Below are positions 829 through 22,216 of a stretch of DNA of 22,216 bases, piece after piece (positions within the stretch are counted from its first letter, which is position 1; every line of letters begins with the position of its first letter). The notes beneath the pieces are model-generated. The model ran no database searches. It was not told where the DNA came from and saw nothing but the letters and a program-made list of their open reading frames with translations. Origin of the DNA: Psammoneis japonica (taxonomy: Eukaryota); assembly GCA_008632985.1 (NCBI GenBank), contig QPGO01000195.1, positions 124,001 through 146,216 of the forward strand, written 5' to 3'. The translations under genes were made by a program, and so were the position numbers.

Positions 829-1316
829 AAGTCTCTGCCCGCACAACGTGGCACAAACCCGCTCTGTTTGTTGTCGTGCATCGTTGCAACTGCCTTGAAG
901 GTTGTGGCTGCCCTTCCTCAACTGGTGCTCAGGCTGTGCATCCTTCTTGGAGTGCAATCATTGTGATTGACAGGAGAGCTGGGTGCTGTGTCTGTTGGCA
1001 ACCCATCCAGAGAAATTGTTCTCCGTCGCGGATGCAAGTTGCTGCCTTGCAAGTTCCATCCCGGATGCAAGTCTCTGTCCACACGACGCGGCACAACACT
1101 GCTCTGATTGTTGTTGTGCATTGTTCACAACTGCCTTGAAGGTTGTGGCTGCCCTTCCTTTGCTGGTGCTCAGGCTGTGCATCCTTCTTGGAGTTCAATC
1201 ATTGTGATTGACAGGAGAGCTGGGCACTGTGTCATTGTGATTGACAGGAGAGCTGGGCACTGTGTCTGTTGGTGACCTGTCCAGAGACATTGTTCTCCGT
1301 CACGGATGCAAGTTGC
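829..1316 (+). repeat. Tandem duplication (about 829-1042 and 1069-1316); copy 2 has an internal ~33-bp duplication
   Basis: Both copies read AAGTCTCTG...CTGCCTTGAAGGTTGTGGCTGCCCTTCCT...GGATGCAAGTTGC; TCATTGTGATTGACAGGAGAGCTGGGCACTGTG occurs twice at ~1199-1265. Confidence 0.9.
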
Positions 1317-1520
1317 AGTGTGTGTGCAGGCAGCTTGGACTGCTTCATCATCAATCATGTCGGAGGGGAACAAGTCTGTCATGAACATGCAGCAACTGTT
1401 GACCACTGTTGAACAAGTTGCTGCGGGGAGGGAAAATGATGATCCCACCCCTGCTGGAATCAAGCACTTTGTTGAGAGTGACAAGGCACACTTTGCAAGG
1501 AGGGGCACAACCATTCACCC

Positions 1521-2129
1521 TTGGCATTGTTCTGCATTGACTGGGGTGTCAAAAGGTCTCCAGGCTCCAGTGTCTTCTTGTTTGACATCGTGCACCACAG
1601 CAACAAATGTGCAAACAACCTGGAAGACAAAGCGTGGTTTCAAGAGGCCATGACAGATTTCTTTCTTGGCGCTTTCAACGATGACAACTGTTCAGCCATC
1701 CGGCAGCATGTCCAGCACAAACACACACACATGCCAATTGTTTGTGAGCAAAAATCAGCAAAGGAACACGACTGCGACATGTCCAATGGTGTGGTGGCTG
1801 TGCTCCTCTGCCGTTGCTTTCACAACGTTGGAGTTGCGGTTGACTTTGTGCACAAAATCAACCATCCGCGAGAGGATGTCATTGCCAAAAAGTGCAGTGT
1901 GTTTGTCCATTTTTGTTTGGTTTTGCCCAGTCCCTTTGCTTTCATGCAGGCAACAAGTGGGATGCACTGCTTCATTGCCAGGAGAATCTCGTCAAATGCT
2001 GCTCAAAAACAATGGGTTTCCAAGATGAGACGGATGGGCTCCTTGAGGAGGCCCGCTGTGCCGACGCAGAGGCATGGTGAAACTGGAAAGAATTGTCAAA
2101 TCTTGAAAATGACAACTCAAGAGTTTTGA
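1521..2129 (+). pseudogene. Possible decayed coding fragment, function unknown
   Basis: Globular-looking stretch (KAWFQEAMTDFFLGAF...GVVAVLLCRCFHNVGVAVDFV) with no Tyr; no family recognised, and ORF length is uninformative here. Confidence 0.25.
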
Positions 2130-2839
2130 GAATCACAGAACGGGTGCACACCCAGTCGAAGTTGTTTCTGTTGCCGTTTCCCCACGATGAGGATGTTTGC
2201 CAGAACTGCATGAAAAAAACTCCAAACAACAGCGCTGTCTGGAAAAAGGACGATCCTTGATGGTTCAAGGAAACTCTGAAGACCACGAAAGATGCAACAC
2301 ACAGCCAATTCAAAATTGATCTGTTGGAATGGACTGCACAACACAAAACACTCTGCTTTTGTCAGCAAGAGGGAGTTTGCCAAGTTTTGGCGACTGTCGC
2401 TTGGTGAACACATTCACAAAAGTTGTCACAACCATGCAGTCATAAATCAAAGGATCCAAGAGCATGCATGGAAATCAAGGCATTGCAATCTTTGAAGGTC
2501 AGCAGTTGAGTTTTTTTCAAAGAGAACCAATGAAGATGACAAAGGTTGCAAACCACTGGAGTTGGAGCCACATCAAACAGTGGGAGACGATGATGAGTGG
2601 TGTGAACAAATGCCGCATTTTTGCACCCATGTGGAAGAGGGCCCAGTGAGCAAGTCAGCCGGAAAATGCAGCAAGAAGCTTGCAGACGACAACTGCAAAT
2701 GATGCAGGCTTCTCCGCAGTCACTGCCAATGGCGGCACAGTGAATCTGATGCTGACCTGGAAGACACAGCAGCCCATCTCGATTTGGAGAATGACAGCGA
2801 TGTTGCTGGCGTCAACGCCAACAAACCAGAGAGGCCCAG

Positions 2840-4645
2840 GTGGCACTCGGTTGCACCAACTGCAACATGTGTGTGACTGAGAAGATGTTTGCCAAAGAAG
2901 GGACAATGGATGACAGCACTGGAGAACTTCCGCACATGGGAAAATGGTTGTTTAAAGAGGTGATGACGACATGCTTCGACCATGTCACACAGATGCACCC
3001 ATCATCATGCAAGAACAAAATGACACACAAGATGCACAGCCGCATTGTTGAGGTTGGTTCAAAGTGACTGTGATCTCTCAAAAGAGGTTCAAGGTTTGGA
3101 CCTGCAAAAGTTCTTTGTTGCTGAGATGAACCACATCGCTCATTGGCGCAAATCCGCCTGCCATCTGTGCCAGTGCCAAGAACAAAGAGCGACCCTTCAC
3201 GTGCAATGTCAAAACCTTGCCAGGCAAACTCATGCTGCAGTGGATTCTTCAACAAGTGACAAAAATGAAAGAGATTCAACGAATCACATGGACGGGGAGG
3301 AAGAATTTTTGAAAAGGACAGTGGGAAAAGACAACAACAAAGGATTGTTGTGCAAGGTCCCCGAACCCCAAGTCTGTTCGAAAGAGGACATGGATGCATG
3401 TTGCCGTGCCAAAGTGGAGCACAACGGTGCAATCAATTTGTCAAAAGTGCACTGCGTGGAATGGACAGCACCCAAAGATGGGAGTGCAGAAGCACCAAAA
3501 TGTCCCAGGGATTTGCTGGAACATGATGTGCCTCATTTGTTTGGTTGGCACAAAGAACAAGAAAATGGCAGAGCACTGATTGAAGACCATTTTAAAGAAA
3601 GCAATGATGAGGGAACAGCCGACATGGACAAGCTGCGGCATCTGATTAAAAAGGCCAAGGAGAAGACTGACAGGCCACAGAAACTCAACAAGAAGGTGAG
3701 GAAAATTCTGCAATGAAGGGCCAAACAGCAGATCGAAACAGATCAGATTTGGAAAGTGCAAGCCCCATGGAGGGACAAGGCAAAACAGCATTTTGCGGAG
3801 GACTCAGCGGACAGCACAGAAGATGCGGGCAACAAGCGCTCAAAATTCTGTGCATGGACAGTCATGGGTGACGAGCAAAAGTGTTGCTCTGGTTGGCGGG
3901 CTAAGCGCAATTTTGAATGTCACCACCCAGGTGTGTGCAGGGCCATGATGGCATTGAAGCCAGGTGAAACTTGTGAAATGCCCAAAGGATTGGTGTTGTC
4001 GAAGCCAGAGGAAATCTCGCTCCCCACCTTTGGTCCCAAGGTTTGCTTTTTACAAGGCAACAATGACACGTGTGTTTTTTCTTCATCAGCTGGTGCGCTG
4101 CATTGCTTGCAAGACGAGCACATGACTCGTCATGTCAGCCGTCAAATTGAGGCTTCTGCAACATCAGCTGCTCGTGGAGACCAACGGATGTTGTTTGCGG
4201 TGTCTCTGATGCAAGGCCTGTTGCGGAAGGAGCATGCTCCAGTTGATGGTCCCATGAAGTTCTACGAAGGCAGGAAGATAGACTGCACCCCAGAGATGTT
4301 GGCATCACGACGGGAGATTTGTTGTGCAAGAAGCTCACCTTGTGTGGATTGTCAAACAACCACTGCGTGACTGTGTGCAATGGTTGGATTTTTGACTCCA
4401 ATCATTCACATGCCATGTCTGTGACAAATCTTGATTGCTGGAATTGGTGTTTGGGCAACTCGCCGGAAGAAGCAGCCTGTGTGACCAATGGTTTGTCAAA
4501 GAAAATTGTGGCGATGCACCAGTTCGATCTGCCCAAGTTAATCTGCAGAAGATTGAACAAGCGCAAGTTGGTGGAGATCAAATGTCAGTCACAATGCATG
4601 TTGGGCATGATGCGCATTTGTCTGCATTGTGCAGGCAGCAATTGA
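2840..4645 (+). pseudogene. Decayed ORF with a putative C-terminal papain-like cysteine peptidase domain; probable transposon accessory gene
   Basis: Consecutive + fragments 3045-3716, 3756-4370, 4319-4645 broken by stops/frameshifts; QGNNDTCVFSS (~4053-4085) then HCVTVCNGWIFDSN (~4361-4402) give the Q..C/H/D order. Confidence 0.45.
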
Positions 4646-4654
4646 GTTGCTGTT

Positions 4655-7425
4655 TCACTGGGTCACCCGTCTTAGAACCAAATCTTGGCACAGGTCTCTA
4701 CACTTGGAGTCCACGAATCCCCAACAAATTGATCCATCCGGTGTTTTCCTGCAAAAGCCAACCAAAATGGCTTTGGTCTGATTCACTTGCAACCAACATC
4801 TGTTGGACAACTCTTCACTGGTGATGGTGGCAGCAAAATGATCCTTGCAACCAAATGTTTCCTTGTGCTCAAGCTGGACATGAAGCAGACGGTTGGGCTC
4901 CACTGCAGCTCCAGTTTTGCCCTCTTCTAACTGCGCAATGACTGTTGGTTCTTTGTCATCTTTCCCATCAACAAGAGAAAGAAGATGCTGCCATGTCTTG
5001 CACACACGCAGATCTGGCATCACTTTTTCAATCCAAAACTCTGACGACAATGCGTCAGAGTCCAAAGATTTGTTTTTCTTGCCAGCTGAACTCACGCGGT
5101 CCATTGCAGCAGTGACATTGAACCCTCTGTGCATGTTTTGAGCAAAATTTTTGCTGCATGAATGGAGCTCTCTTTTGGTCTGCTTCAGCGCCTTTTTGTC
5201 TTCCCCTTCCCAACACACTCAAACTGGTCCTTTGTCATGCATGTTGTCAGGAAAAGACAACATGCTAAGAACAGTGTGTCATTCATGCCAGATTGGGGCC
5301 AGATCTTTGCCGTCTTTGCCATGGTTTTGTTGCATTGGTGGATCCAGAGCATCCATGTCATTGAGAAATTGTGCGATGCAAAACCTGAGATGCAGCTCCA
5401 AATCATCTGAACTGAATCCTGCCAGTGCATGCGCGCGCATGTTTGAGGCAGAGTTGAGCATTTTAACAACATCCGACACCTGCAATTTGGCAGATGGCAG
5501 TGTGCCTGGAGGGTTTGTCATGGCCATGTGATCCGCAACATGTTCATGCAGTTCTTCAGCATTGCCCCGTCCAGTGGCAATCCATGCATTTTTGGCCACG
5601 CCTTGTCAAATGGCATGGTCCAACTTGCTTGTTTGTTGACAGGCAGAAACACCACAGGTGGGCCATCTGGTGTTTCAAGTGTTGGGTTGGCAAAGAATTT
5701 AAACAAACGTCCAAATGCAATCCAGCTCTTGCATTTGAATCCAGCAAAACTGTTCTTTGTAAAGGGGCGCACATTCAACCAAGGAAGTCACAGTGTTTCA
5801 CAACAGTGTCACATCTGGTTCATCAGTGAGGACTCTACAATCCGCTCCCATCACCTGGGTGAGCAGCAAGCCAAACCCATGGCCTTTGCGGTGTTGCCAA
5901 GTCCATGCATTGGTGCCTCCTGCCGCTGGTCAGGAGGTGTCCCACTGAACCAAATGGGAGGCATTTGATGCACGCAGCATTTCTCAGGATGACATTCACG
6001 ATCAAGCAAAAGCACTTCCAACAATTCTGGATTTTGATTGGGTTCATCTTGCAACACTTTCAACAGATTGCAGTTGTTGGCATTTTCTAAAATGCCAGAA
6101 ACAAGTTGTGTGTTCACACTGCAACAATCACCAAGATGAGCTTCGCCCTCCGCCATGGTCCACTGGCTCTGACAGACATTTGTGTGCGTTTTAATTGCAG
6201 CATTTTGGAGAAATTTGTGCACCCATTTGAAAGGAGGGAGAACCAATTTACCACCAAGTTTGCTGAGTGGAAAGTTGGCAGAAGGGGGGGGGTGTGCAGC
6301 AAAGGATTGGAAGCATCAACAGACCAGTTGGTGCACAATCCAAATGGACATGTCAAGTCTGCAATCGTTTGAAAGCCATTGACAAGGGTTTCTTCAATGC
6401 GTTTGTGACAGTGGATGCAAGATGCAAGATGACACCCAACTTTCTTGATGTTCAACACATGGCCGAACAATGCATGATTGGTTTTCATGCCAAATTTCAT
6501 TCCAGTGATTGCGCGTTTTTCCGGTTGGTCTCCAGATCGCAGCCAGACATCTGCGATGGGCTTCATTGATTTGCCAGCGCTGCCAAAAAACATGGGTGGC
6601 ACCTGCCCAGTTTGAAGAAGGTGAATTTTCCTTTCAACCTCAGACACAACCACATCATGATTTGCACCTTTGGGCCCAAGTGCAACAAGAAAGCAGTTGT
6701 TGAACTCGCCAAGGTCGGCTGCGATCACACTTGAGTCATCAGGGAACAAAGGTCCATGATGTGGTTGGCAAAGAAACCCAATGTGGCAAGCCCAAGAGCC
6801 ATTGACATTGGATGCAATGAGGCTCGCGGCAGGGTTAAAATTGTCAGAAAAGGTTTCAAAGGCTGTGACAAGCAATGGACAATCAGTGTGTTCATCATTG
6901 CTCCAAATTGAAATGGAAGTGTCATAAATTTCCTCAACCCGATGACACTGTCTTGCATGGACAACCGGTTGATTTTCTTGAAACAAACCATTTTTGTCAG
7001 CGGCTTCACACAGATTTTCCAGGCCGGCTCCAAATGCCAAAAAGTTGTGCAACGAGTCAATCACACTGCAATGGGAGTGTGTGTTTTTGCCAGAGCCGAG
7101 TGTTTGCATTGGCACCAAGGGCGCCGTGTGTGTTGCAAACATGTGTGGGTGTGGTGGGCAGAACAAACCAAAAGTGATCCAGACTCTCATTTCTTTCCCC
7201 CACCAGCATGGCGGGTTCCAACCATCTGAACAAGTCCAGCAACATGTGCTGCTGTGGCTCGTGCAGGGACAACATTAACTTGCCCAGCAACAAGTGAACG
7301 TCAGCATCCTCGTCTGAAATTTTTTCTGCAAATTGTGCGTTGTCAAACAAATTCTTGGCAAGCAGGCAACGTTTTTTGCTGCCCAATTGTTGGCAGCAAA
7401 AAAAGGATCGGAACAAGTGTGTCAA
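4655..7425 (-). pseudogene. Decayed DDE transposase, CACTA/EnSpm (tnp2)- or Plavaka-like
   Basis: Collinear minus-strand motifs across frameshifts: FSDNFNP...NGSW, LVALGPKGANHDVV, SGDQPEKR, CIHC, EAPMHGLG, DNMHDKGPV*VCWEG; these match the recalled order D, DxP, (D/E)xMH, GPxxxW. Confidence 0.6.
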
Positions 7426-7455
7426 ATGGAGAGCAACCGATCAGCGATCTTGAAG

Positions 7456-8060
7456 TTGCGGACCCCTGCCTGGGTGTCACTCTGAGGGTGTTCTTGGCAG
7501 CCGTCAGACCAATGTTCCACCTCTTGGAGAGCATCTCTGGCGTGACAGTCAATGCACGACTCAAGGTCAACAGTGCATGCACCCCTTTCCACTTGGCACA
7601 ATCCAGGTGGACGTCCAGATTGTTCCGTTCATGTGGCCGGTCTCCCCCAGTGTCATTGTGAGATGCACTGGCCTGAGCAGCCAAGCAGTGATGCAGAGAA
7701 TCATCGTCATTTGCACCCACAATGACGCTCTCATTGTGATGGGATGTCTGACACGAACAAGCCAAAGCAATGCACCTGGTTGCACTCATCATTGTCACCC
7801 TGATTTTCAAGTCGGGGAAAACAACAGAGTGCGCACTGTTGGGATCAAACTGGCGAGGGGTGTCGTGGACAGTCAGCTCACTTGCTCACAGTTGGCTGGG
7901 GCACAGCAGGGTGCCAGTCATTCTTTCCCTGAAAAACATAGCCTCGTGGGCTGGCAGTGGGCGTGGCTGTCCATTGGCTAGATCAACCCACATGGCAGCA
8001 GCCATGCAAATGGGGACATTCCTCATTGGTGCACACTCTTCGGAGCAAGGATGCACTGCA
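7456..8060 (-). mobile_element. Internally deleted copia pol fragment (protease to pre-integrase)
   Basis: 7456-7796 aligns to ~11017-11358 (LSKRWNIGLTAA); 7797-8045 aligns to ~11554-11805 (HEAMFF...LLCP); about 200 bp missing between them. Confidence 0.9.
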
Positions 8061-8061
8061 G

Positions 8062-8673
8062 CCCGAGACTTCAGGCAGTGTTGAAGAGAATGGGCATGCA
8101 GGCAGCGCATGGTGTGCTGAAACCAGAAGAGGAGAAGGTGGCTGGAAATGATCTCTTTCCACAGGTGAAGTTTCTCAGCCCGTCAGAATTGGCAAGCAAT
8201 GGGAGCATCTCAATGTTTGTCAAGAAACAGATTGCTGGTGGCAACATGGACACTTCAAATTGGTCAGGAACTTGGGAGGAATGGGCAAAAAAGGTGGCAA
8301 AAAGGCAAGTTGACAATCTCAGAAACACGGTGTGTTTGGCTGTTGGGGCGGAGGCAATGGCCCGCAAGTTGGGTGACCAATGTGTGTGACTCGAGAGTTG
8401 CGCGCATCTCACAAGAAGATGACGGTGATGCTTTGTCTGTGCAGGCATTGTCACCAAGGAAGAGGGAAAGGAAAAAGAAAAGAAACTCAAGGCGGCAGTC
8501 AAGAGGAAAAAGCAAGGCAGGAACAAGTCAAGCCATGACAAGAATGAAAAGAAAGACATCCCGATTGTGCTGACATGGGATCCGCCCAGCCCAGACACTG
8601 TCGCCGGCAGCAAATGAAGGAACAAGCAGGCACGCAAGCGGTTCTGTGATCACACCCCTGTTTGCAAAAATTG
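8062..8673 (+). pseudogene. Decayed gene of unknown function, copy A (probable intron 8364-8444)
   Basis: GNDLFPQVKFLSPSEL...WEEWAKKVAKRQVDNLRN, a Lys-rich tract and KRFCDH, with an in-frame TGA; near-identical to 15150-15761. Confidence 0.5.
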
Positions 8674-8920
8674 ACAAACCAAGGATTGTGTGGCAATGCA
8701 ATCACAGATTGGCACATGGCAACAAGGTGGAGGCAGAAATGGCGATGTGGACACAGTGAAAAATGGCACACATGATTCTCAACAAGTTGTTGTGACATTG
8801 GCACAGCAAACTTGCAACCAGAGGTTGGCCTGTCATTGTGCGACAACAATTTTTTGCAACATTTTGACAAATTGTCATCATGCAAATCCACACATTTTTA
8901 ACATTTCGTGCACTCTGATG

Positions 8921-9784
8921 CGTGTGTTGTGCACAGCATCATCACACAGCATTTGTCCAACTCTCCCTCTCATTGCAGGATGGGTTGTCGCCATGTGGCG
9001 CATCTGCACAGTGGACTTGCGAATTTGACCATGCACTCCCTCTGTCAGGCAGGATGGGTTGGTGCCATGTGGCGCATCCGGCCAAGGGAGGAGTGGGTTC
9101 GAAGCCCAGCCGCCCACCCCGGATGGGGTTGGAAAGGGGCAGGCCGAGAAAGAAAAGGAGGCTTGGATTTGAGGCCAATTCGAGCCAGTGACCTCAGGAA
9201 GCACAAAGACTCACAACCACTCAGAACGCTGCACACTGTCCTGGCGAGTGCAGGAGGTTCTCAACAACCCAAGAGGCAAAGAAGTTGCCACTCGGCTGGC
9301 TGTTGAGTCCCTTCTCCGCGCACACATTTGGGCGTGTGTTGTGCACAGCATTGTCACACAAAATTTGTCCAACTCTCCCTCTCGTTGCAGGGTGGGTTGT
9401 CACCATGTGGCGCATCCGCACGGAGGACTCATGAATTTGACCATGCACTCCCCATGTTGGGCAGGATGGGCCAGCGCCATGTGGCGCATCCGGCCAAGGG
9501 AGGAGCGGGCTCGAAGCCCAGCCGCCCACCCCGGATGGGGTTGGAAAGGGGCAGGCTGAGAAAGAAAAGGAGGCTTGGATTTGAGGCCGATTCAAGCCAG
9601 CGACCTCAGGAAGCGCAAAGACTCACAACCACTCCGAACACTGCACACTGTCCTGGCGAGTGCAGGAGGTTCTCAACAACCCAAGAGGCAAAGAAGTTGC
9701 CACTCAGCCAGCTGTTGAGCCCCTTCTCCACACACACATTCAGGCATGTGTTGTGCACAGCATCATCACACAGCATTTGTCCAA
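8921..9784 (+). repeat. ~410-420-bp repeat: two tandem units plus the start of a third; further copies at ~16008-16125 (partial) and ~19549-20002
   Basis: TGTGTTGTGCACAGCAT..TCACACA..ATTTGTCCAACT recurs at ~8923, 9335 and 9746; each unit holds GGG(T/C)TCGAAGCCC and CCACCCCGGATGGGGTTGG. Confidence 0.9.
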
Positions 9785-9786
9785 CT

Positions 9787-10450
9787 GAACATGTCCTTTC
9801 AAGGAAAACAAGCATGTTTTCCTTGAAAAGACATGTTGTTTTCCTTAAAAAGACATGTTTGTTTTCAGGACATGTTGTTTTCATTGAAAAGACATGTTTG
9901 TTTTCCTTGAAACCACATGTTCGTCTTCCTTGAAACAACACGTTTGTTTTCCTTGAAAAGACACATTTTTTTTCCTTGAAACAACATGTTTGTTTTCCTT
10001 GAAAAGACATGTTTGTTTTCCTTGAAACGACATGTTTGTTTTCCTTGAAAAGATGTGTTTGTTTTCCCTGAAAAGACACATTTGTTTTCCTTGAAAACAC
10101 ATGTTTGTTTTCCTTGAAACAACGTGCTTGTTTTCCTTGAAAAGACATGTTTGTTTTCCTTAAAAAGACATGTTTGTTTTCAAGACATGTTTGTTTTCAT
10201 TGAAAAGACATGTTTGTTTTCCTTGAAACCACATGTTTGTTTTCCCTGAAACGACGTGTTTGTTTTCTTTGAAATGACATGTTTGTTTTCCTTGAAATGA
10301 CATGTTTGTTTTCATTGAAAAGACATGTTTGTTTTCCTTGAAAAGACATGTTTGTTTTCCTTGAAACGACATGTTTGTTTTCCTTGAAAAGAAATTTTTT
10401 TCCCCTTGAAACGACATGTTTGTTTTCCTTGAAAAGACATGTTTGTTTTC
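9787..10450 (+). repeat. 23-bp satellite array 1, consensus TTTTCCTTGAAA(A/C)GACATGTTTG
   Basis: Direct 23-bp periodicity. Confidence 0.97.
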
Positions 10451-11429
10451 ACCAATCAAAGAGAGAGAGGGAAGAGATGTCGGGTGTTGAACCTGTCACC
10501 TCCTCTTCTGGGACTCGTCCTCCCATGTCTGACACACTGGTTGCAATCATGCGTCGGATGTCACATGCCCATTTGGCGCTGTGGGACCAAAGTCGTCTGT
10601 GAGCGCCAGTCCAGCGCAGAGTCACACGGACTCTTTTCTTCAACTCACGAATGGATGCCTCGGCCAGGTTCTGCCAGGGGCTGCATGGAGTGGACACCTC
10701 CTGGTGCATCCTGCATTCCTTGCAGATCTCCTTGGTCTGGCCTTCCACCATTTCTGGCACGCCATCTGACACAAGGACCTGCGGTGTGCCAACGTCATGC
10801 ACAAATGACATGACGGCATCTGGGTGGTCCTGTTTCCTCTTCCAAGGATGGAGCCTGTCACACCCTCTTCCGTTGGCAAGTGCGCTTCCTCCCATCTTGC
10901 CATGTGTCGATTTGACCTTTGAAAACATCTGGTTGGAGTAGAGTCGTCCCTTGACAGCAGGGAACTTGAGCCAAGGGGCTTTCTTCCGGACTTTCCGTTC
11001 GGATGGTGTGCAGACATTGCGGACCCCTGCCTGGGTCATCACTCTGATGGTGTTCTCAGCAGCCGTCAGGCCAATGTTCCACCTTTTAGAGAGTGTCTTG
11101 GGCGTGACAGTTGATGCACGACTCAAGGTTGACAGTGCATGCACCCGCTTCCGCTCGGCACAATCCAGGTGGACATCCAGGTCATGCCAGTCGTGTGGCC
11201 CATCTCCCTTGGTGTCGTTGTGGGAGACATTTGCCTGAGCAACCATGCGGCGATGCAATGAATTGTCGTCATCAGTGTCCACAATGACGCTCTCGTCATG
11301 ACAGGACATTTGGTGTGAATGAATGGAAGCAACACACCTGGTCACATTCATTGTCGTCGACCATCCACCCGACTTTGCCGATCCTTGGCGCACACTGGCA
11401 CATGCACGTGCTTCCTCCTTTTGCGCCAT
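10449..11429 (-). pseudogene. pol: Copia integrase region (rve core)
   Basis: LSKRWNIGL, LYSNQMFSKVKS, FVHDVGTPQVLVSDG, PCSPWQNLAEASIRELKK, VTGSTPDIS..LFDW; first catalytic Asp appears as Asn; ends at the satellite junction. Confidence 0.92.
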
Positions 11430-11943
11430 GGCATCAGCAGAAGGCTCTCATCTCGGGGGTGATGTGAGCTCCAGCCGGGGGAGGTTCTCCAGATCCTCAT
11501 TTGTTGGCTCGTGTGAATCAAAGACAGAAGCAACGCCTCTTGTTCACAGTGGCACCCTGATCTTCAAGTCAGGGAAAGCAATGGAGTGCGCGCCAGTCGG
11601 ATCAAACTGGCAAGGGGGTGTCGTGGACAATCAGCCCATTTGCTCGCAGTTGGTTGGGGCACAGAAGGGTGTTGGTCATCTTGTCCCCAAAAAACATGGC
11701 CTCGTGGACTGGCAGCAAGCACGGTTGTCCATCAGTTGGATCAACCCACACCGCAGCAGCCACGCAAACAGGAGTGTTTTCCATTGGCGCGTGCTCTTCG
11801 GAGTGGGGGTGCACCACGACAGTTCTGTCGATGTCAGAGCACATCACAAAATTGGACCCAACAGCACACGTGTCAGTGTGCGAGTCTAAATCAGTGGTGG
11901 CTTCATCATCTGAATTTCCAGCAGATGACAAAGAGACACGCAC
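11430..11943 (-). pseudogene. pol: Copia aspartic protease region, frameshifted near 11610
   Basis: LDSHTDTCAVGSN, HEAMFFGDKMTNTLLCPNQLRANG; continues in another frame as QFDPTGAHSI...LPRLELTS. Confidence 0.88.
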
Positions 11944-12030
11944 ATCCTTTGAGAATCACCCAGACAAACAAACAGTGCCAGCAGGTTTAGCAACATTTGG
12001 TTCTGTGCCTTTCAGTGCTGGCGCAACTGT

Positions 12031-13218
12031 TCATTCCTCATTCTGAGGTTTCTCATGTGCGCTGCATCCAAACTGGGTGCCTGCATTGGCGGCAGGTTCA
12101 TCAGGCTCGTCGGAGTCTTTCGGTGCATCAGCAGGTTGAGCAGCAGGCTCGGCAACAGCTGCTTTCTTTACAGCAAGAGTTTCGGCATCAACCGACTCAG
12201 CTTCCAAGGACACAGCAGCAGCTTTGCATTTCTTTTTGGCCTTCTTGGCGTCGCGGAGCTTTTGGACTTGCTCTCACTCGGGACCGTCAAGAGCACTCCG
12301 GTCGGAGATGCCCTTCAGAAAGTCAGAGACCTTCTTGGTCTCGGCCACCAGTTCATCAAGCTCAGACAAGTCGTTGTGAGCCTTTTGATGACGCTGAATG
12401 TGCTGGTCAAATGCAAATCGACCCCGTCCGGTGCACTTCGCGGCAGCAATCTGTGCATGAGCATGGTTCTTTTGGGGGGGGGTGGTGGCGGCTGATCCTT
12501 CCGCCTGCCTCTCAAGTGCAAAGAAAGCAGTGCGACCATCGCGGCTGCGATTGGAAGGTTTGACAAAAGCCCATCCGGGCCCCCCCATCACTGACTTCTT
12601 CAGGAGATCATGCAGTCGTTGCCTGTCCTGCGCATGCTGAGCGCCCGCAAGGCGGGTGGCAGCAATGAGGTCCTCGTCAATGGCAGCGCAGGTGGCAGCC
12701 AACATCTCGGCGGTGACTTCCTCATGTTCCCCAGCTGGACAGATGAGGGGAACTCCGGCAACGGTGCTGCGGTGGTGGCGCAGTTCGGTCTCCAGCAACT
12801 CTTGGAAGGTGGGCCAGCTGTGTGGGTTCTTGAGCTCCACGGCCGTTTTGGCAGCCAATTCGTCGTCCGAGTCGGCGGACTTGAATTGCTCCAGTTCCAT
12901 CAGACGTGCCGCCCATGTTCCAACAACGTCGCCAGCGAAGAGAGCAGCAGTCGGCTGTTGGTTCCGGGCTCTGCGGCAGTCAATCCATGCGTGCAGTGCC
13001 TTGAGCTTTCGATTCGCCAGGTGTGGAAAGCGGACTTGAGGGCTGGCAGCGGCACCCACGCTTTTCATGGTGCCCTTCGTCATGTCGGCAATTTCAGTCA
13101 AAGGGACCTGCTCCAGGTCCTCGACAGCAGTGAAGCCTTGACGGGCCATGTGGGTGCGCGTCTGTGCACTGTGCCCACAACGCGCAAGACAGGCAGCAAA
13201 GGCTGCAGCAGCGGCCAT
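12031..13218 (-). pseudogene. gag: Copia gag, premature TGA at ~12274
   Basis: FPHLANRKLKALHAWIDCR, GVPLIC, GPGWAFVK...DGRTAFFAL, CTGRGRFAFDQHIQRHQKAHNDL, ETKKVSDFLKGISD; lies between LTR and protease. Confidence 0.85.
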
Positions 13219-13746
13219 GGCGCATCAGCAGTTGTTCGCGTTTCGATGCGTGAGCATCCACTTGTGTGAGTGGAGGAAAGTGAGAAAAATGCATGGCTCT
13301 CGTGCCGATTTGGCGGTTTCTGCTTGGCGAACCCATGAGCAGGCAGTGTTGCCCCCAAGCGACAATGTCCAACAGACATGCATCCACATGTGCAGCGTCC
13401 AAACAATTTGATGATGCACTTTGATTGATGAGATGTGTGTGGTCAAATGACAGACAGCGCACAAATCATTGTGTTGTCTTCATCACGAATGTTTGCGTGT
13501 CTCAGCCGACATGTTCCATCCACATGATCAAACATTTCGTGTGATGACGTCATGTCTGACGGATCACAGCTCTGGTCTCCAAGAGCATGTTGTTCATGTC
13601 CATGAATGTTGACACACACAAAGGACTCAGCAATTGCGCAAGCAACCATGGGACCAACATGGCGCTTGCCACAAAAATCAATTGATCACAACGATGCCGT
13701 CACACCGTTTGCAATGCCCGTTCCAGGCGATGAACATCACAGCGCA

Positions 13747-13761
13747 CTGGCTCTGACAAAG
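13747..13761 (-). promoter_or_regulatory. Candidate primer-binding site
   Basis: Minus strand reads LTR-CA|CTT TGTCAGAGCCAG; resembles plant iMet PBS TGGTATCAGAGCCAG after TA->TG but lacks the TGG. Confidence 0.35.
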
Positions 13762-13945
13762 TGACCAAATGCCACCATGATGGCTGAGAATTGGGTGCAA
13801 GACAAGACAGAGTGTTGAGCAGCATCAGCAGGTTCTAGAATTGTGAGATGTTGCGCCATTGGGGCCACTGATCAAGCAACAGTGAACCAATCGCCAACAG
13901 CACACAAACTGCCTGTGTTTGTGACAGCACACCAGCATTTGTTCA
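13762..13945 (-). repeat. 5' LTR (184 bp, TGA...TCA)
   Basis: End-to-end similarity to 21554-21739, stopping exactly at TG/CA termini. Confidence 0.9.
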
Positions 13946-14345
13946 AAACGACATGTTTGTTTTCCTTGAAACAACATGTTTGTTTTCAATGAAAAGACAC
14001 GTTTGTTTTCCTTGAAAAGACACATTTGTTTTCCTTGAAATGACATGTTTGTTTTCCTTGAAACGACATGTTTGTTTTCCTTGAAAAGACATGTTTGTTT
14101 TCCTTGAAACAAAATGTTTGTTTTCCTTGAAAAGACATGTTTGTTTTCCTTGAAACGACACACTTGTTTTCCCAGAAAAGACATGGTTGTTTTCATTGAA
14201 ACCACATGTTTGTTTTCCTTGAAACGCCGCATTTGTTTTCCTTGAAAAGACATTTTTTTCCCTTGAAGCGACATGTTTGTTTTCCTTGAAACGACGTGTT
14301 TGTTTTCCTTGAAAAGACATGTTTGTTTTCAAGACATGTTTGTTT
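13946..14345 (+). repeat. 23-bp satellite array 2
   Basis: Direct 23-bp periodicity starting immediately after the LTR. Confidence 0.97.
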
Positions 14346-14810
14346 GACCTTGACATTGAAGTCTTCTCTGCAGACAGGCCCAAGTCCCGCTCTGGGTTTC
14401 AACTCACCTTGCGCGTGCAAAAGCACCCTGATTTTCAAGTCAGGGAAAACAACAGAGTGTGCGCTGTTGGGGTCAAACTGGCGAGGGGTGTTGTGGACAG
14501 TTGGCTCACTTGCTCACAGTTGGCTGGGGCACAGCAGGGTGTCAGTCATTCTTTCCCTGAAAAACACAGCCTCGTGGGCTGGCAGTGGGCACGGCTGTCC
14601 ATTGGCTGGATCAACCCACATGGCAGCAGCCACGCAAATGGGGACATTCCTCATTGGCGCGCACTCTTCGGAGCAAGGATGCACTGCAGCAGCGTGGTTG
14701 CTGACAACAATTTGTTCAATGTTGTGGAGAAAAATGGAGTGGCTGGCTGTCTCAACATGACCCAAATGATGGCTGCACTTCGAACAGCAATGCTCCTCTC
14801 ATTGTTGCTG

Positions 14811-15067
14811 GCCTGTTCCAGCTCCAGGTGCTCTGCTTTTCATCACGCGAGAGGCCCATTTTCTGCGCAGTTTGGCGCAATTGACTCCTTCAATTTTGAT
14901 CGTTTCGAAAATCGAAAGGTGAGTGTACACCCGAAAATGCATGTAAAGTGCACACTCACCCTTTGATTTGGCAAAAAACGGATTTGGAAAAGTCAATTGC
15001 GCCAAATGCACAAATTTCCAAATGATGGGAATCGAACCCGCGCGGAGCACCTGGAGCTGGAACAGGC
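14811..15067. mobile_element. 257-bp MITE with 23-bp perfect TIRs and CTG target duplication; PIF/Harbinger (Tourist)-like
   Basis: GCCTGTTCCAGCTCCAGGTGCTC (14811-14833) is the reverse complement of 15045-15067; CTG on both flanks; internal inverted repeats. Confidence 0.75.
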
Positions 15068-15149
15068 CTGCTGTGAAAAGATCAAGATGTCGTCTCCAGC
15101 ACCACCGGCAAAGAAAGAGAAAGAAAAATGAGACTGTTGAGCCAATGAG

Positions 15150-15761
15150 CCTGAGACTTCAGGCAGTGTTGAAGAGAATGGGCATGCAGGCAGCGCATGG
15201 TGCGCTGAAACCAGAAGTGGAGAAGGTGGCTGGAAATGATCTCTTTTCACAGGTGAAGTTTCTCAGTCCATCAGAATTGGCAAGCAATGGGAGCGTCTCA
15301 ATGTTTGTCAAGAAACAGATTGCTGGTGAAAACGTGGACACTTCAAATTGGTCAGGAGCTTGGGAGGAATGGGCAAAAGAGGCGGCAAAAAGGCAAGTTG
15401 ACAATCTCAGAAACACGGTGTGTTCGGCTGTTGGGGCGGAGGCAATGGCCCGCAAGTTGGGTGACCAATGTGTGTGACTCGAGAGTTGCGCGCATCTCGC
15501 AAGAAGATGACATTGATGCTTTGTCTGTGCAGGCGTTGTTGCCAAGGAAGAGGGAAAGGAAAAGAAAAGAAACTCAAGGCGGCAGTCAAGAGGAAAAAGC
15601 AAGGCAGGAAAAAGTCAAGCCGTGACAAGAACGAAAAGAAAGACGTCCCGATTGTGCCGACATGGGATCCGCTTGGCCCAGACACTGTCGCTGGCAGCAA
15701 ACAAAGGAACAAGCAGGCACACAAGCGGTTCTGTGATCACACCCCTGTTTGCAAAAATTGA
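15150..15761 (+). pseudogene. Decayed gene of unknown function, copy B
   Basis: GNDLFSQVKFLSPSEL...AHKRFCDH; paralog of 8062-8673. Confidence 0.5.
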
Positions 15762-16125
15762 CAAACCAAGGATTGTGCGGCAATGCAATCATGGATTGGC
15801 ACATGGCAACAAGGTGGAGGCAGAAATGGCGATGTGGGCACAGTGAAAAATGGCACACAAGATTCTCAACGAGTTGTTGTGACATTGGCGCAGCAAACTT
15901 GCAACCAGAGGTTGGCCTGTCATTGTGCGACAACAATTTTTTGCAACATTTTGACAAGTTGCCATCACGCAAATCCACACATTTTTAACGTTTCGTGCAC
16001 TCTGATGCGTGTGTTGCGCACAGCATCATCGCACAGCATTTGTCCAACTCTCCCTCTCATTGCAGGATGGGTTGTCGCCATGTGGCGCATCTGCACAGCG
16101 GACTTGCGAATTTGACCATGCACTC

Positions 16126-16348
16126 CGTCTGACGCGTTCCAGGTCTAGGTGGGACCTCGCACTGCTGAACTGTGACATCGACAGTTTTTTGAGTCTCGTC
16201 GTATGTCGCGCACGTAGATTTCTACGTGATTTTTTCGACATTTTGTGTCATTTTACGGTGCACTTATTGAGCGATCCGTCCAACAACTTTTGACATTTTT
16301 TGTTACAGCGCGATTCTACAATGTCTTAAGAATCGCGCAGGGCAGGCG
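16126..16348. other. TpA- and CpG-retaining, palindrome-rich island; possible end of a young element
   Basis: Nine TpA in ~220 bp; inverted repeats 16211-16218/16221-16228 and 16308-16317/16329-16338. Confidence 0.7.
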
Positions 16349-16657
16349 NNNNNNNNNNNNNNNNNNNNNNNNNNNNNNNNNNNNNNNNNNNNNNNNNNNN
16401 NNNNNNNNNNNNNNNNNNNNNNNNNNNNNNNNNNNNNNNNNNNNNNNNNNNNNNNNNNNNNNNNNNNNNNNNNNNNNNNNNNNNNNNNNNNNNNNNNNNN
16501 NNNNNNNNNNNNNNNNNNNNNNNNNNNNNNNNNNNNNNNNNNNNNNNNNNNNNNNNNNNNNNNNNNNNNNNNNNNNNNNNNNNNNNNNNNNNNNNNNNNN
16601 NNNNNNNNNNNNNNNNNNNNNNNNNNNNNNNNNNNNNNNNNNNNNNNNNNNNNNNNN
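16349..16657. other. Assembly gap (309 N)
   Basis: Run of N. Confidence 1.
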
Positions 16658-18618
16658 GACATGTTTGTTTTCAAGACATGTTTGGTTTCCTTGAAAAGAC
16701 ATGTTTGTTTTCCCTGAAACCACATGTTTGGTTTCCTTGAAAAGACATGTTTGTTTTCCCTGAAACCACATGTTTGTTTTCCTTGAAAAGACATGTTTGA
16801 TTTCCTTGAAACGACAAGTTTGTTTTCCTTGAAACCACATGTTTGTTTTCCTTGAAATGACACGTTTGTTTTCCTTGAAATGACATGTGTGTTTTCCTTA
16901 AAAAGACATGTTTGTTTTCCTTGAAACAACATGTTTGTTTTCCTTGAAACGACATGTTTGTTTTCCTTGAAACCACATGTTTGTTTTCCTTGAAAACACA
17001 TGTTTGTTTTCCTTGAAACGACATGTTTGTTTTCATTGAAAAGACATGTTTGATTTCCTTGAAACCACATGTTTGTTTTCCTTGAAACCACATGTTTGTT
17101 TTCCTTGAAACCACATGTTTGTTTTCCTTGAAACGACATGTTTGTTTTCATTGAAAAAACATGTTTGATTTTCTTGAAACAACATGTTTGTTTTCCTTGA
17201 AACGACATGTTTGATTTCCTTGAAAAGAGACATTTGTTTTCCTTGAAACAACATGTTTGTTTTCCTTGAAACGACATGTTTGTTTTCCTTGAAAAGACAC
17301 ATTTGTTTTCCTTGAAACAACATGTTTGTTTTCCTTGAAATGGCGCATTTGTTTTCCTTGAAACGACATGTTTGTTTTCCTTGAAAACACACAATTGTTT
17401 TCCTTGAAACAACATGATTGTTTTCCTTGAAATGGCATGTTTGTTTTCTTCGAAACGACGTGTTTATTTTCCTTGAAACGACATGTTTGTTTTCCTTGAA
17501 AAGACATGTTTGTTTTCCTTGAAACCACATGTTTGTTTTCCTTGAAACGCCGTGATTTTTTTCCTTGAAAAGACATTTTTTTCCCTTGAAGCGACATGTT
17601 TGTTTTCCTTGAAACGACATGTTTGTTTTCCTTGAAAAGACATGTTTGACATGTTTGTTTTCCCTGAAACCACATGTTTGGTTTCCTTGAAAAGACATGT
17701 TTGTTTTCCCTGAAACCACATGTTTGTTTTCCTTGAAAAGACATGTTTGATTTCCTTGAAACGACAAGTTTGTTTTCCTTGAAACCACATGTTTGTTTTC
17801 CTTGAAATGACACGTTTGTTTTCCTTGAAATGACATGTTTGTTTTCCTTAAAAAGACATGTTTGTTTTCCTTGAAACAACATGTTTGTTTTCCTTGAAAC
17901 CACATGTTTGTTTTCCTTAAAATGACACGTTTGTTTTCCTTGAAAACACATGTTTGTTTTCCTTGAAACGACATGTTTGTTTTCATTGAAAAGACATGTT
18001 TGTTTTCCTTGAAAAGACATGTTTGTTTTCCTTGAAAAGACATGTTTGTTTTCTTTGAAATGACATGTTTGTTTTCCTTGAAACGACATGTTTGTTTTCA
18101 TTGAAAAGACATGTTTGATTTCCCTGAAACGACATGTTTGTTTTCCTTGAAACGACATGTTTGTTTTCCTTGAAAAGACACATTTGTTTTCCTTGAAACA
18201 ACATGTTTGTTTTCCTTGAAATGGCGTGTTTGTTTTCCTTGAAACGACATGTTTGTTTTCCTTGAAACCACATGTTTGTTTTCCTTGAAATGACACGTTT
18301 GTTTTCCTTGAAACGACACGTTTGTTTTCATTGAAAAGACATGTTTGTTTTCTTTGAAACGAAATGTTTGTTTTCCTTGAAACGAAATGTTTGTTTTCCT
18401 TGAAAAGACATGTTTGTTTTCCTTGAAACGACACACTTGTTTTCCCAGAAAAGACATGGTTGTTTTCATTGAAACCACATGTTTGTTTTCCTTGAAACGC
18501 CGTGATTTTTTTCCTTGAAAAGACATTTTTTTCCCTTGAAGCGACATGTTTGTTTTCCTTGAAACGACATGTTTGTTTTCCTTGAAAAGACATGTTTGTC
18601 TTCAAGACATGTTTGTTT
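16658..18618 (+). repeat. 23-bp satellite array 3 with higher-order duplication
   Basis: 23-bp periodicity; the variant series at ~16658-16940 recurs at ~17648-17890. Confidence 0.97.
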
Positions 18619-20003
18619 GACCTTGACATTGAAGTCTTCTCTGCAGACAGGCCCAAGTCCCGCTCTGGCACTCAACTCACCTTGCGCGCGCAAAAGCACC
18701 CTGATTTTCAAGTCAGGGAAAACAACAGAGTGTGCGCTGTTGGGGTCAAACTGGCGAGGGGTGTCGTGGACAGTTGGCTCACTTGCTCACAGTTGGCTGG
18801 GGCACAGCAGGGTGTCAGTCATTCTTTCCCTGAAAAACACAGCCTCGTGGGCTGGCAGTGGCGTGGCTGTCCATTGGCTGGATCAACCCACATGGCAGCA
18901 GCCAACGCAAATGGGGACATTCCTCATTGGCGCGCACTCTTCGGAGCAAGGATGCACTGCAGCAGCGTGGTTGTTGACAACAATTGTTTCAATGTTGTGG
19001 AGAAAAATGGAGTGCTGCTGTCTCAACACGACCCAAATGACGGCTGCACTGTCAAACAGCAATGCTCCTCTCATTGTTGCTGGCATGTTCCAGCTCCAGG
19101 TGCTCTGCTTTTCATCACGCGAGAGGCCCATTTTCTGCGCAGTTTAGCGCAATTGACTCCTTCAATTTTGATCGTTTCGAAAATCGAAAGGTGAGTGTGC
19201 ACCCGAAAATGCATGTAAAGTGCACACTCACCCTTTGATTTGGCAAAAAACGGATTTGGAAAAAGTCAATTGCGCCAAATGCACAAATTTCCAAATGATG
19301 GGAATCGAACCCGCGCGGCGGCAATGCAATCATGGGTTGGCACATGGCAACAAGGTGGAGGCAGAAATGGCGATGTGGGCACAGTGAAAAATGGCGCACA
19401 TGATTCTCAACAAGTTGTCGCGACATTGGCACAGCAAACTTGCAACCAGAGGTTGGCCTGTCATTGTGCGACAACAATTTTTTGCAACATTTTGACAAAT
19501 TGCCATCATGCAAATCCACACATTTTTAACGTTTCGTGCACTCTGATGTGTGTGTTGTGCACAGCATCATCGCACAGCATTTGTCCAACTCTCCCTCTCA
19601 TCGCAGGATGGGTTGTCGCCATGTGGTGCATCTGCACAGTGGACTTGCAAATTTGACCATGCACTCCCTCTGTCAGGCAGGATGGGGCTGGTGCCATGTG
19701 GCGCATCCGGCCAAGGGAGGAGTGGGTTCGAAGCCCAGCCGCCCACCCCGGATGGGGTTGGAAAGGGGCAGGCCGAGAAAGAAAAGGAGGCTTGGATTTG
19801 AGGCCGATTCAAGCCAGCGACCTCAGGAAGCGCAAAGACTCACAACCACTCAGAACACTGCACACTGTCCTGGCAAGTGCAGGAGGTTCTCAACAACCCA
19901 AGAGGCAAAGAAGTTGCCACTCGGCCAGCTGTTGAGCCCCTTCTCCGCACACACATTCAGGCATGTGTTGTGCACAGCATCGTCACACAGCATTTGTCCA
20001 ACT
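18619..20003 (+). repeat. Composite block copy C: protease fragment (18698-18963), MITE missing most of its right TIR (~19083-19318), ~730-bp deletion, 420-bp repeat
   Basis: Matches 14346-15045, then jumps to the equivalent of ~15778 at GCGG. Confidence 0.9.
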
Positions 20004-21553
20004 GAACATGTCATGAAAAGACATGTTTGTTTTCCTTAGAAACACACATTTGTTTTCCTTGAAAAGACATGTTTGTTTTCCTTGAGACGACATGTTTGTT
20101 TTCCTTGAAAAGACATGTTTGTTTTCTTTGAAATGACATGTTTGTTTTCCCTGAAACGACATGTTTGTTTTCCTTGAAACCACATGTTTGTTTTCCTTGA
20201 AAACACATGTTTGTTTTGTCTGAAACGACATGTTTGTTTTCCTTGAAAAGACATGTTTGTTTTCCTTGAAACCACATGTTTGTTTTCCATGAAACCACAT
20301 GTTCGTTTTCCTTGAAAAGACATGTTTGTTTTCTTTGAAACAACGTGTTTGTTTTTCTTGAAAAGACATGTTTGTTTTTCTTGAAAGAACATGTTTGTTT
20401 TCTGTGAAACCACATGTTTGTTTTCCCTGAAACGACATGTTTGTTTTCCTTGAAAGGACACGTTTGTTTTTCTTGAAAAGACATGTTCGTTTTCCTTGAA
20501 AAGACATGCTTGTTTTCCGTGAAACAACATGTTTGTTTTCCTTGAAACCACATGTTTGTTTTTCTTGAAAACACATGTTTGTTTTCCCTGAAACAACATG
20601 TTTGTTTTCCTTGAAATGACATGTTTGCTTTCTTTGAAAAGACACCTTTGTTTTCCTTGAAAACACATGTTTGTTTTCCTTGAAACCACGTGTTTGTTTT
20701 CCTTGAAAAGACACGTTTGTTTTCCATAAAACAACATGTTTGTTTTCCTTGAAACAACACGTTTGTTTTCCTTGAAAACACATGCTTGTTTTCCTTAAAA
20801 CAACATGTTTGTTTTCCTTGAAAAAACATGTTTGTTTTCCTTGAAACAACACGTTTGTTTTCCATGAAACGACATGTTTGTTTTCCTTGAAACCACGTGT
20901 TTGTTTTCCTTGAAAACACATGTTTGTTTTCCTTGAAACGACATGTTTGTTTTCCTTGAAATGACATGTTTGTTTTTGTTGAAAAGACATGTTTGTTTTC
21001 CTTGAAAAGACACACTTGTTTTCTTTGAAACGAAACGTTTGTTTTCCTTGAAATGGCACGTTTGTTTTCAAGACATGTTTGTTTTCCTTGAAACGACATG
21101 TTTGTTTTCCTTGAAAAGACATGTTTGTTTTCCTTGAAATGACATGTTTGTTTTCTTTGAAAAGAAATGTTTGTTTTCTTTGAAAAGACATGTTTGTTTT
21201 CCTTGAAACCACATGTTTGTTTTCCTTGAAACAACACGTTTCTTTTCCTTGAAGAGACATGTTTGTTTTCTTTGAAATGACATGTTTGTTTTTCTTGAAA
21301 ATGCACATTTGTTTTCCTTGAAAAGACGTGATTGTTTTCCCTGAAACCACATGTTTGTTTTCCCTGAAATGACACATTTGTTTTCCTTGAAAAGACATGT
21401 TTGTTTTCTTTGAAAAAACATGTTTGTTTTCCTTGAAAAGACGTGTTTTTTTTCTTGAAAAGACATGTTTGTTTTCCCTGAAACACATGTTTGTTTTCCC
21501 TTGAAACCACGTGTTTGTTTTCTTTGAAAACACATGTTTGTTTTCCTTGAAAC
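20004..21553 (+). repeat. 23-bp satellite array 4
   Basis: 23-bp periodicity; ends CCTTGAAAC at the LTR. Confidence 0.97.
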
Positions 21554-21890: not shown

Positions 21891-22216
21891 TCACCACAGG
21901 ACGTGACTTGTGATTTCCCGGAGCTTCGGTCCAGGCAACAACTTGGTCAGTGCGTCTGCCAGATTCGTGCGCCCGTCTTCCCAAGCAATGCGCGCTGTTC
22001 CAGCGGCTTGTGCCTCGCAAGTCCTGTGACAGGTGGATGCATTGTGCTTCTTCTTCAAAGTGGACTCCGGTTTGGTTGAGTTCTTGAAGACAGCTTCATT
22101 GTTGCAGAAAACATCAGTGGCCCCATCCATGGGGATTCTGAGCATCCGAAGCTTGCAGCGCAAGGCTTCGATTTGCTCCACTGCAGTCTTCACAGCCATG
22201 AACTCGACCCAAAAGC
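21891..22216 (-). pseudogene. pol: Copia RNase H C-terminus, running off the window
   Basis: EALRCKLRM..IPMDG..VFCNNEAV..NST.PESTLKKKHN...HR..EAQAAG...NLADALTK. Confidence 0.95.

Follow-up and report, generated by a model that had tools for sequence, protein, structure and literature searches.

The closest described counterpart of the sequence reported here comes from mutation-accumulation lines of Bigelowiella natans, for which the accessible part of the report (bioRxiv 10.64898/2026.01.13.699255) places 231 of 302 nuclear single-nucleotide mutations in integrated giant-virus and virophage regions. Nearly all of these 231 mutations were A>G or T>C, and every A>G or T>C change fell on a TpA dinucleotide, converting it to TpG or CpA (bioRxiv 10.64898/2026.01.13.699255). 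The same part of that report describes 124 clusters of TpA-depleted, CpA- and TpG-enriched 1-kb windows in B. natans, together with 324 low-TpA coding sequences (CDS) that have a mean TpA frequency of 0.0018 and are enriched in reverse-transcriptase and DDE Pfam families, and proposes an ADAT2-like protein as a DNA adenine deaminase (bioRxiv 10.64898/2026.01.13.699255). It was the sole report returned by a literature search for a TpA-specific mutator aimed at foreign DNA. Here, we describe a stretch of contig QPGO01000195.1 (positions 124,001 to 146,216; 22,216 bases, including a single 309-N gap), referred to throughout as the window, whose minus strand carries what appears to be a truncated Ty1/copia retrotransposon copy. 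The evidence makes it very likely that this dead copy lies in a 22-kb repeat block altered near saturation by a TpA-specific A:T>G:C process of the B. natans type.

The window contained 61 TA dinucleotides compared with approximately 1534 expected (observed-to-expected ratio, o/e, of 0.040). The o/e values for CA, TG and CG over the whole window were 1.73, 1.59 and 0.55, respectively; all dinucleotide expectations were taken from the present base composition, which is itself shifted. The resulting feature spans the whole window.

1-22216, no strand: TpA-depleted repeat domain (TA o/e 0.040, all 1-kb bins low)

The TA o/e was 0.10 or below in all of the 1-kb bins, with the exception of 16001-17000 (0.26), and the depletion extended equally to satellite DNA, to the pieces of mobile elements and to sequence lacking detectable homology. 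Deficits of 1473 TA and 546 CG stood against gains of 919 CA and 861 TG (gain total 1780), so that the balance was roughly closed. The clusters in B. natans were defined, in the accessible part of the report, by a Rho TpA of at most 0.43 and a Rho CpA+TpG of at least 1.52 over at least three windows of 1 kb (bioRxiv 10.64898/2026.01.13.699255). The window falls within this definition, with TA at 0.00-0.26 per 1-kb bin and the CA and TG values given above; a few bins have a CA/TG mean slightly below 1.52.

The region 10449-13218 on the minus strand is, as judged from its sequence, a truncated and dead Ty1/copia remnant comprising gag, a Pol N-terminal region and integrase. Mapping by tblastn with 168 relatives as queries, a set that did not include the five gag relatives, identified five minus-strand fragments, designated A to E. 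The composition of fragment A (copy A) and of the satellite at its end is as follows.

About 13218-10359, minus strand: fragment A, with gag, Pol N-terminal region and integrase (tblastn)
12274-13218, minus strand: gag-like open reading frame (ORF) P0002, 314 amino acids (five relatives, E 6e-71 to 2e-49)
11611-11931, minus strand: Pol N-terminal region (putative protease) with the motif PHSEEH (tblastn, residues ~2-140 of the relatives)
10452-11696, minus strand: integrase region, truncated at the satellite (ORF P0001 is 10449-11429)
9815-10450, no strand: 23-bp satellite array abutting the truncated integrase (TRF period 23, 28.3 copies)

The integrase gave 20 matches in a word-indexed search (best E 1.3e-83) and 1413 relatives at E ≤ 1e-3 in an exhaustive search (best P0023, E 1.3e-90). 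Pfam analysis placed rve on the integrase ORF below the cut-off (E 0.023) and found no family on the gag-like ORF P0002. The element was assigned to Ty1/copia because its relatives carry RVT_2 (PF07727) downstream of the integrase match, which covers residues ~300-540, with RVT_2 at residues ~830-1090. RVT_2 was above the cut-off in four of the six relatives scanned (P0034, P0036, P0060 and P0083), just under it in P0075 and absent from P0023. Copy A runs in the order gag, Pol N-terminal region and integrase, directly after which the 23-bp satellite cuts it off. No tblastn match to reverse transcriptase (RT) was found anywhere in the window, and self-comparison revealed no direct repeat pair, of the kind expected for long terminal repeats (LTRs), on the two sides of 10452-13218. 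As RT and flanking LTRs are missing, copy A is a remnant and not a whole element. The label "CoDi", which the initial annotation had used for the motifs of the element, refers to groups of diatom copia elements that are defined on the RT domain, with placement by RT similarity and phylogeny, according to the accessible part of their description (PMC2806351); copy A has no RT.

The fate of conserved residues was assessed codon by codon against the 12 nearest among 173 relatives, and columns were regarded as conserved when at least 60% of at least five relatives agreed (622 columns). This replaced an initial test on a single MAFFT alignment of 98 relatives, which yielded just three conserved Tyr columns and was thus too small. 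Conserved Tyr was kept in one of 17 columns; eight read Cys (all TGY), seven read His (all CAY) and one was a TGA at a satellite junction. The TpA-only signature described in B. natans was therefore seen in 15 of the 16 changed Tyr columns, which were TGY or CAY, with both strands affected. By comparison, conserved non-Tyr residues were kept in 441 of 605 columns (Fisher p 1.9e-8 versus Tyr), and Phe and Trp together in 34 of 44 (p 3.5e-7 versus Tyr), bearing out the initial annotation, which had set the loss of Tyr against that of Phe and Trp. With an 80% consensus, Tyr was kept in 1/9 columns versus 296/371 for non-Tyr. In a leave-one-out control, the relatives themselves kept Tyr like other residues (337/462). 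Fifteen of the 17 Tyr columns lie in fragment A, one in B and one in E; some of the columns for other residues fall in paralogous fragments (B, C and D), which makes them non-independent.

The residues now present in the window were seldom seen among the relatives, as had been anticipated: His occurred in 3/158 at position 10850, Cys in 1/159 at 10862 and His in 6/116 at 10583. In gag, the columns with Tyr in all five relatives (WADY, PLTY, KAYA, FDQY and xxYDS) read C, C, H, H and C, respectively (alignment A3). Tyr accounted for 0% of the residues encoded by the gag ORF and for 0.3% of those encoded by the integrase ORF, compared with a median of 3.29% over 175 proteins and 1.5% in the lowest relative. 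Fragment A contains five TA in 2767 bases, a frequency of 0.0018.

The altered minus-strand motifs listed in the initial annotation were located where they had been claimed, with PCSPWQN at 10668-10688, GCDRLHP at 10845-10865, LWSH at 10581-10592, PHSEEH at 11791-11808, GVPLIC at 12739-12756 and FDQH at 12400-12411. The two RNase H motifs are also present (LRCKLR at 22146-22163 and TCHR at 22023-22034); they had been assigned to 10449-13218 and lie instead in fragment E, where codon 22157 is TGC and Tyr is found in 10/10 relatives. Besides the PYSPWQN column discussed below, two of the motif columns are weaker items: at the first Tyr of PYSEEY, 27/41 relatives have Phe and 13/41 have Tyr, and at AYHR, Tyr is found in 4/9 relatives.

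A tabulation of all ancestral TA-containing codons had also been proposed, and was carried out at the amino-acid level only, where the losses of Tyr and Ile fit the loss of TA. Ile was kept in 12 of 30 columns, with 14 reading Val and two Met, which fits the changes T|ATH>T|GTH and ATA>ATG. For the Ile ATA, Val GTA and Leu CTA/TTA codons, the DNA of the relatives was too distant, consisting of one metagenome locus at 43% identity, and none of the viral contigs gave matching DNA of relatives. The TA dinucleotides that cross codon boundaries were deduced from Ile>Val and Thr>Ala following T.

The remaining copia fragments in the window provide a second view of the direction of change.

7454-8062, minus strand: fragment B, Pol N-terminal region and integrase start (tblastn, P0036 residues 32-291)
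14406-14765, minus strand: fragment C, Pol N-terminal region (tblastn; 94% identical to B)
18637-18996, minus strand: fragment D, Pol N-terminal region (tblastn; 94.8% identical to B)
21894-22214, minus strand: fragment E, RNase H C-terminal end of copia Pol with LRCKLR and TCHR (tblastn, residues ~1250-1360 of the relatives)

Fragments A and B are 81% identical over 278 bp, with seven CA<>TG double mismatches. Among the adjacent double mismatches between A and B, C or D, CA<>TG was the commonest class (7-11 per ~270 bp), with three or fewer for each of the other classes, while B, C and D share states and differ by only 1-4 CA<>TG doubles per 267-1103 bp. In the four-copy DNA alignment, both Tyr codons of PYSEEY read CAC in A versus TGC or TGT in B, C and D, and one aligned site showed three states (A, CA; B, TA; C and D, TG). 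The CAC versus TGC difference between copies and the three-state site indicate that TA was ancestral at these positions. The initial annotation had argued that TA is ancestral at the Tyr codons, and this was upheld both by the in-window paralogues and by the TAY codons of the relatives as compared with TGY or CAY here; its further point, that CpG decay is unable to turn Tyr into Cys or His, also holds, given the TAY ancestor in the relatives. Copy A and the lineage of B, C and D appear to have mutated independently; the states common to B, C and D indicate that these three were duplicated afterwards.

On the coding strand of copy A, 12 of the inferred TA sites had become TG and 10 had become CA (p 0.83), indicating no strand bias. 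Strand-coordinated runs of TG or CA along copy A numbered 10 versus 11.9 expected (z -0.84), and no clustering was detectable. Over the Pol fragments (481 columns), 141 columns were changed, of which 109 were explicable by a single base change and 32 needed more steps; five of the latter were Ile>GTG. The single-change classes comprised 17 TA>TG, 8 TA>CA, 12 CG>CA, 6 CG>TG, 12 other A:T>G:C, 16 other G:C>A:T and 38 transversions. As the 12 other A:T>G:C changes compare with 16 other G:C>A:T changes and with 25 of the TA type, the fragments show no overall drift from AT to GC at sites other than TpA.

The loss of TA is reflected in the reading frames of the window. The stop triplets on the two strands numbered 32+33 for TAA, 13+16 for TAG and 565+416 for TGA, and 95 stop-to-stop ORFs of at least 100 amino acids were found in the six frames, compared with a mean of 11 (maximum 22) in 50 shuffles. 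The excess of long ORFs arises because TAA and TAG need TA, which has been lost. The proposal in the initial annotation that long stretches of frame stay open was accordingly confirmed by these 95 ORFs, but its view that the proteins are disabled by missense change needs qualification: copy A also carries four in-frame TGA stops upstream of 11429 in the integrase frame, a frameshift between the Pol N-terminal and integrase frames, and the truncation. At 11614, the window copy has an extra base that is lacking in most other genomic copies. None of 66 long ORFs reached the curated Pfam cut-offs. The longest non-satellite ORF (6117-7274, minus strand, 386 amino acids) had no relatives among 2148 candidates and is read as spurious. 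The 7.4 kb at 1-7400 show no protein or Pfam homology and are likewise free of TA (27 TA, o/e 0.054), with many long ORFs; these ORFs are probably spurious, within unrecognisably mutated repeat DNA.

Of the 61 surviving TA, 21 are inside TTAA. Several are in satellite monomers in which TTGAA has changed to TTAAA, and these look like new TG>TA mutations and not survivors. A single patch of the window has a near-normal TA content and serves as an internal control.

16132-16348, no strand: patch with near-normal TA (217 bp, 9 TA, TA o/e 0.62, CG o/e 1.63)

The adjoining sequence at 15148-16131 has a TA o/e of 0.02, and the switch occurs exactly where repeat homology stops (16131). The patch adjoins the N gap, and could represent a young insertion, the margin of the hypermutated domain or a join made in scaffolding.

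Beyond the array at 9815-10450, three more arrays of the 23-bp satellite were found in the window, and the copia fragments, satellites and other repeats are arranged in higher-order duplicates.

13946-14330, 16675-18603 and 20017-21553: further 23-bp satellite arrays (TA o/e ~0.02)

Each of the four arrays lies directly downstream (minus strand) of a copia fragment, with a differing cut point. The variation between satellite monomers is mainly at CG/CA/TG positions. The satellite may be part of the 3' region of the element, or dead copies may have been captured by it. Higher-order segmental duplicates were observed between 7796-10450, 13946-16131 and 18219-20678, mostly at ~94-96% identity with one long pair at ~88%, and contain a Pol N-terminal fragment and a 412-bp tandem repeat (8920-9786, 2.1 copies) in addition to satellite and ~1 kb of sequence of unknown nature. 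Fragment C belongs to a 1.1-kb duplicate of 18219-19318 at 95.7% identity. Across the in-window duplicate pairs, identity was mostly ~94-96%, with two of eight pairs at 81% and 91%.

CA and TG in the window also arise from CpG decay, a distinct second process that is still active. The 233 differences between the duplicates comprised 110 CG<>TG/CA, 25 CA<>TG doubles, 7 TA<>CA/TG, 49 other transitions and 42 transversions. Of the 40 sites of difference between the window and other genomic copies that had the best support, 22 show CG in those copies against TG or CA in the window; at four the change would yield TA, and at five CG is lost. The order of events inferred from these comparisons is hypermutation, followed by duplication of B, C and D with the satellite and the 412-bp repeat, with CpG decay continuing.

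Contigs of a public sequencing run (X1) contained 65% of the 31-mers of 10460-13900. A total of 3152 of these contigs lay on 10460-13900 with 85-100% likeness, and showed 189 transition versus 18 transversion sites; some of their loose ends carry TA. The copia family is highly repeated in this run, with a summed word depth in the thousands versus tens per single contig, and at several sites roughly half of the depth supports CA or TG as the alternative state. Of two further runs, X2 gave three contigs on this stretch and X3 gave none, and no RNA data set was listed as containing the sequence. A related metagenome locus (L001) had a TA o/e of 0.79.

Four other explanations of the TA deficit were considered. 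CpG decay alone, in which methylated CG decays to TG or CA and the low TA has some other, unrelated cause, would account for the CG o/e of 0.55, for the CG found in other copies at 22 of the 40 variant sites, for the 110 of 233 duplicate differences of the CG<>TG/CA type, and for the changes of Arg to stop (CGA>TGA), and of Gly to Arg and Asp to Asn following C. It cannot remove TA, the deficit of which exceeds that of CG, and it is refuted as the sole cause by Cys and His codons where the relatives have Tyr, not Arg; copy B also retains TA where other copies read CA or TG. The probability left to this explanation is negligible. A-to-I editing of the element RNA by an ADAR-like enzyme, followed by insertion of hyperedited cDNA, is in keeping with the RNA stage of retroelements and with the preference for U before the edited A noted in the accessible part of the B. 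natans report (bioRxiv 10.64898/2026.01.13.699255), but would give only A>G on the coding strand, where 10 of the 22 inferred events were T>C, including seven Tyr>His. The strand symmetry of the outcomes thus excludes the editing of sense RNA. Satellites and homology-free stretches are equally free of TA, and the B. natans mutations, according to the same part of the report, occurred during vegetative growth in integrated DNA present as a single copy (bioRxiv 10.64898/2026.01.13.699255), leaving this route very improbable.

An artefact of sequencing or assembly, for instance through the miscalling of modified bases at TpA as C or G, is made thinkable by the 309-N gap and by the sole matching run, whose platform is unrecorded and which is possibly the source of the assembly. 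We regard it as highly unlikely, since nearly two-thirds of the 31-mers examined recur in the contigs of run X1, normal TA is present in the patch at 16132-16348 on the same scaffold, loose ends of the run contigs carry TA, and the choice of CA or TG is common to B, C and D at almost all sites and different in A, which looks like inheritance. The accessible part of the B. natans report also gives the same signature from mutation-accumulation lines sequenced by Illumina (bioRxiv 10.64898/2026.01.13.699255). Low TA as a compositional habit of the whole genome, or as the outcome of selection against TA, with no targeting of repeats, would agree with the involvement of all 22 kb, including the parts with no detectable mobile-element homology. 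It was judged implausible, as Tyr codons are indispensable to a genome, the loss of conserved Tyr from gag, integrase and RNase H is a destructive change and not a selected one, the boundary at 16131/16132 is sharp and TA is present in other run contigs.

Under the TpA-directed explanation, which we consider strongly favoured, the DNA of the block would undergo TpA-specific A:T>G:C transitions, yielding TpG or, as read on the opposite strand, CpA. Tyr codons (TAY) would become Cys (TGY) or His (CAY), many Ile codons would become Val or Met, and the loss of TAA and TAG stops would open long spurious ORFs in all six frames, with ordinary CpG decay superimposed and continuing. The target of the process would be chromosomal DNA, and its role would be to defend the genome against DNA of mobile or foreign origin. 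A possible chemistry, put forward as a hypothesis in the B. natans report and given somewhat less than even weight here, is enzymatic: an ADAT2- or TadA-like deaminase would convert adenine at TpA to inosine, which is read as G. More speculative still, and rather unlikely on present evidence, is a heterochromatin-wide TpA hypermutation defence resembling fungal repeat-induced point mutation (RIP) that operates outside B. natans (or in an undescribed part of B. natans), with TA driven to complete loss in families and satellites and the copies then amplified dead; if true, DNA adenine deaminase defence would be more widespread among marine protists.

Several observations weigh against this explanation or limit its reach. 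At the PYSPWQN column (position 10685), the relatives have Tyr in 79, His in 45 and Cys in 0 of 142. At single CA/TG sites with no protein anchor, the ancestor is ambiguous, and much of the copy-to-copy variation is CpG-related and not TpA-related, as seen in both the duplicate differences and the variant sites described above. The equation of the process with the de novo one in the B. natans mutation-accumulation lines is suggested by signature alone. As TA is self-complementary, deamination of adenine is indistinguishable from a thymine-directed route, and no deaminase gene was found in the window. The controls with normal TA consist of the 217-bp patch, the TA-bearing loose ends of the run contigs and one relative from elsewhere; run X1, being possibly the assembly's own source with an unrecorded platform, is weak as independent support.

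The window adds evidence of polarity that is independent of mutation-accumulation lines, through protein homology and paralogues. It also adds the end state of the process, with 4% of the expected TA over at least 22 kb versus the 45% given for the giant-virus insert in the accessible part of the B. natans report, and an order of events in which hypermutation was followed by segmental amplification, with CpG decay ongoing. The TA-free DNA gives approximately nine times more long ORFs than shuffled sequence, and Pfam misses a real integrase (E 0.023). With TAA and TAG lost and Pfam recognition lost, low-TpA CDS may be largely spurious and real mobile elements under-annotated; this may apply to the unannotated "low-TpA CDS" of such genomes in general.

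Among the known systems, CpG methylation decay of transposable elements yields the same TG and CA products, but starts from CG and is unable to explain Tyr>Cys or Tyr>His. Animal ADAR and APOBEC enzymes likewise cause deaminase-type clustered transitions in mobile elements, and ADAR favours U before A; however, they act on RNA or minus-strand cDNA and are strand-asymmetric, whereas the changes here are symmetric and affect the satellite. Fungal RIP resembles the present case in its dinucleotide-specific transitions in repeated or mobile DNA on both strands, by which coding capacity is killed and similarity searches are blunted. It differs in converting CpA to TpA (C>T), so that TA is enriched, GC is lowered and stops are created. 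The window shows the opposite, with TA lost (o/e 0.04), CA at 1.73, GC raised and TAA and TAG gone, and is thus not a case of RIP. In addition, RIP acts on repeats, whereas the B. natans target is single-copy in the accessible account. According to the same account, B. natans and the window have in common a TpA-only target, TpG or CpA products depending on the strand and low TpA with high CpA+TpG, and the mean TpA frequency of 0.0018 in the low-TpA CDS of B. natans equals that of fragment A. As far as that account goes, the B. natans regions with measured rates, a giant-virus insert present as a single copy (Rho TpA 0.45) and an insert of virophage origin, were far from saturation, and polarity came from mutation-accumulation lines; here, near-saturation (0.04) extends over at least 22 kb and involves a satellite and a copia family of high copy number, and polarity comes from Tyr codons and paralogues. 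We therefore read the window as a further, saturated case, in a block of retrotransposon and satellite DNA, of a process known so far from that one preprint, and not as a new kind.

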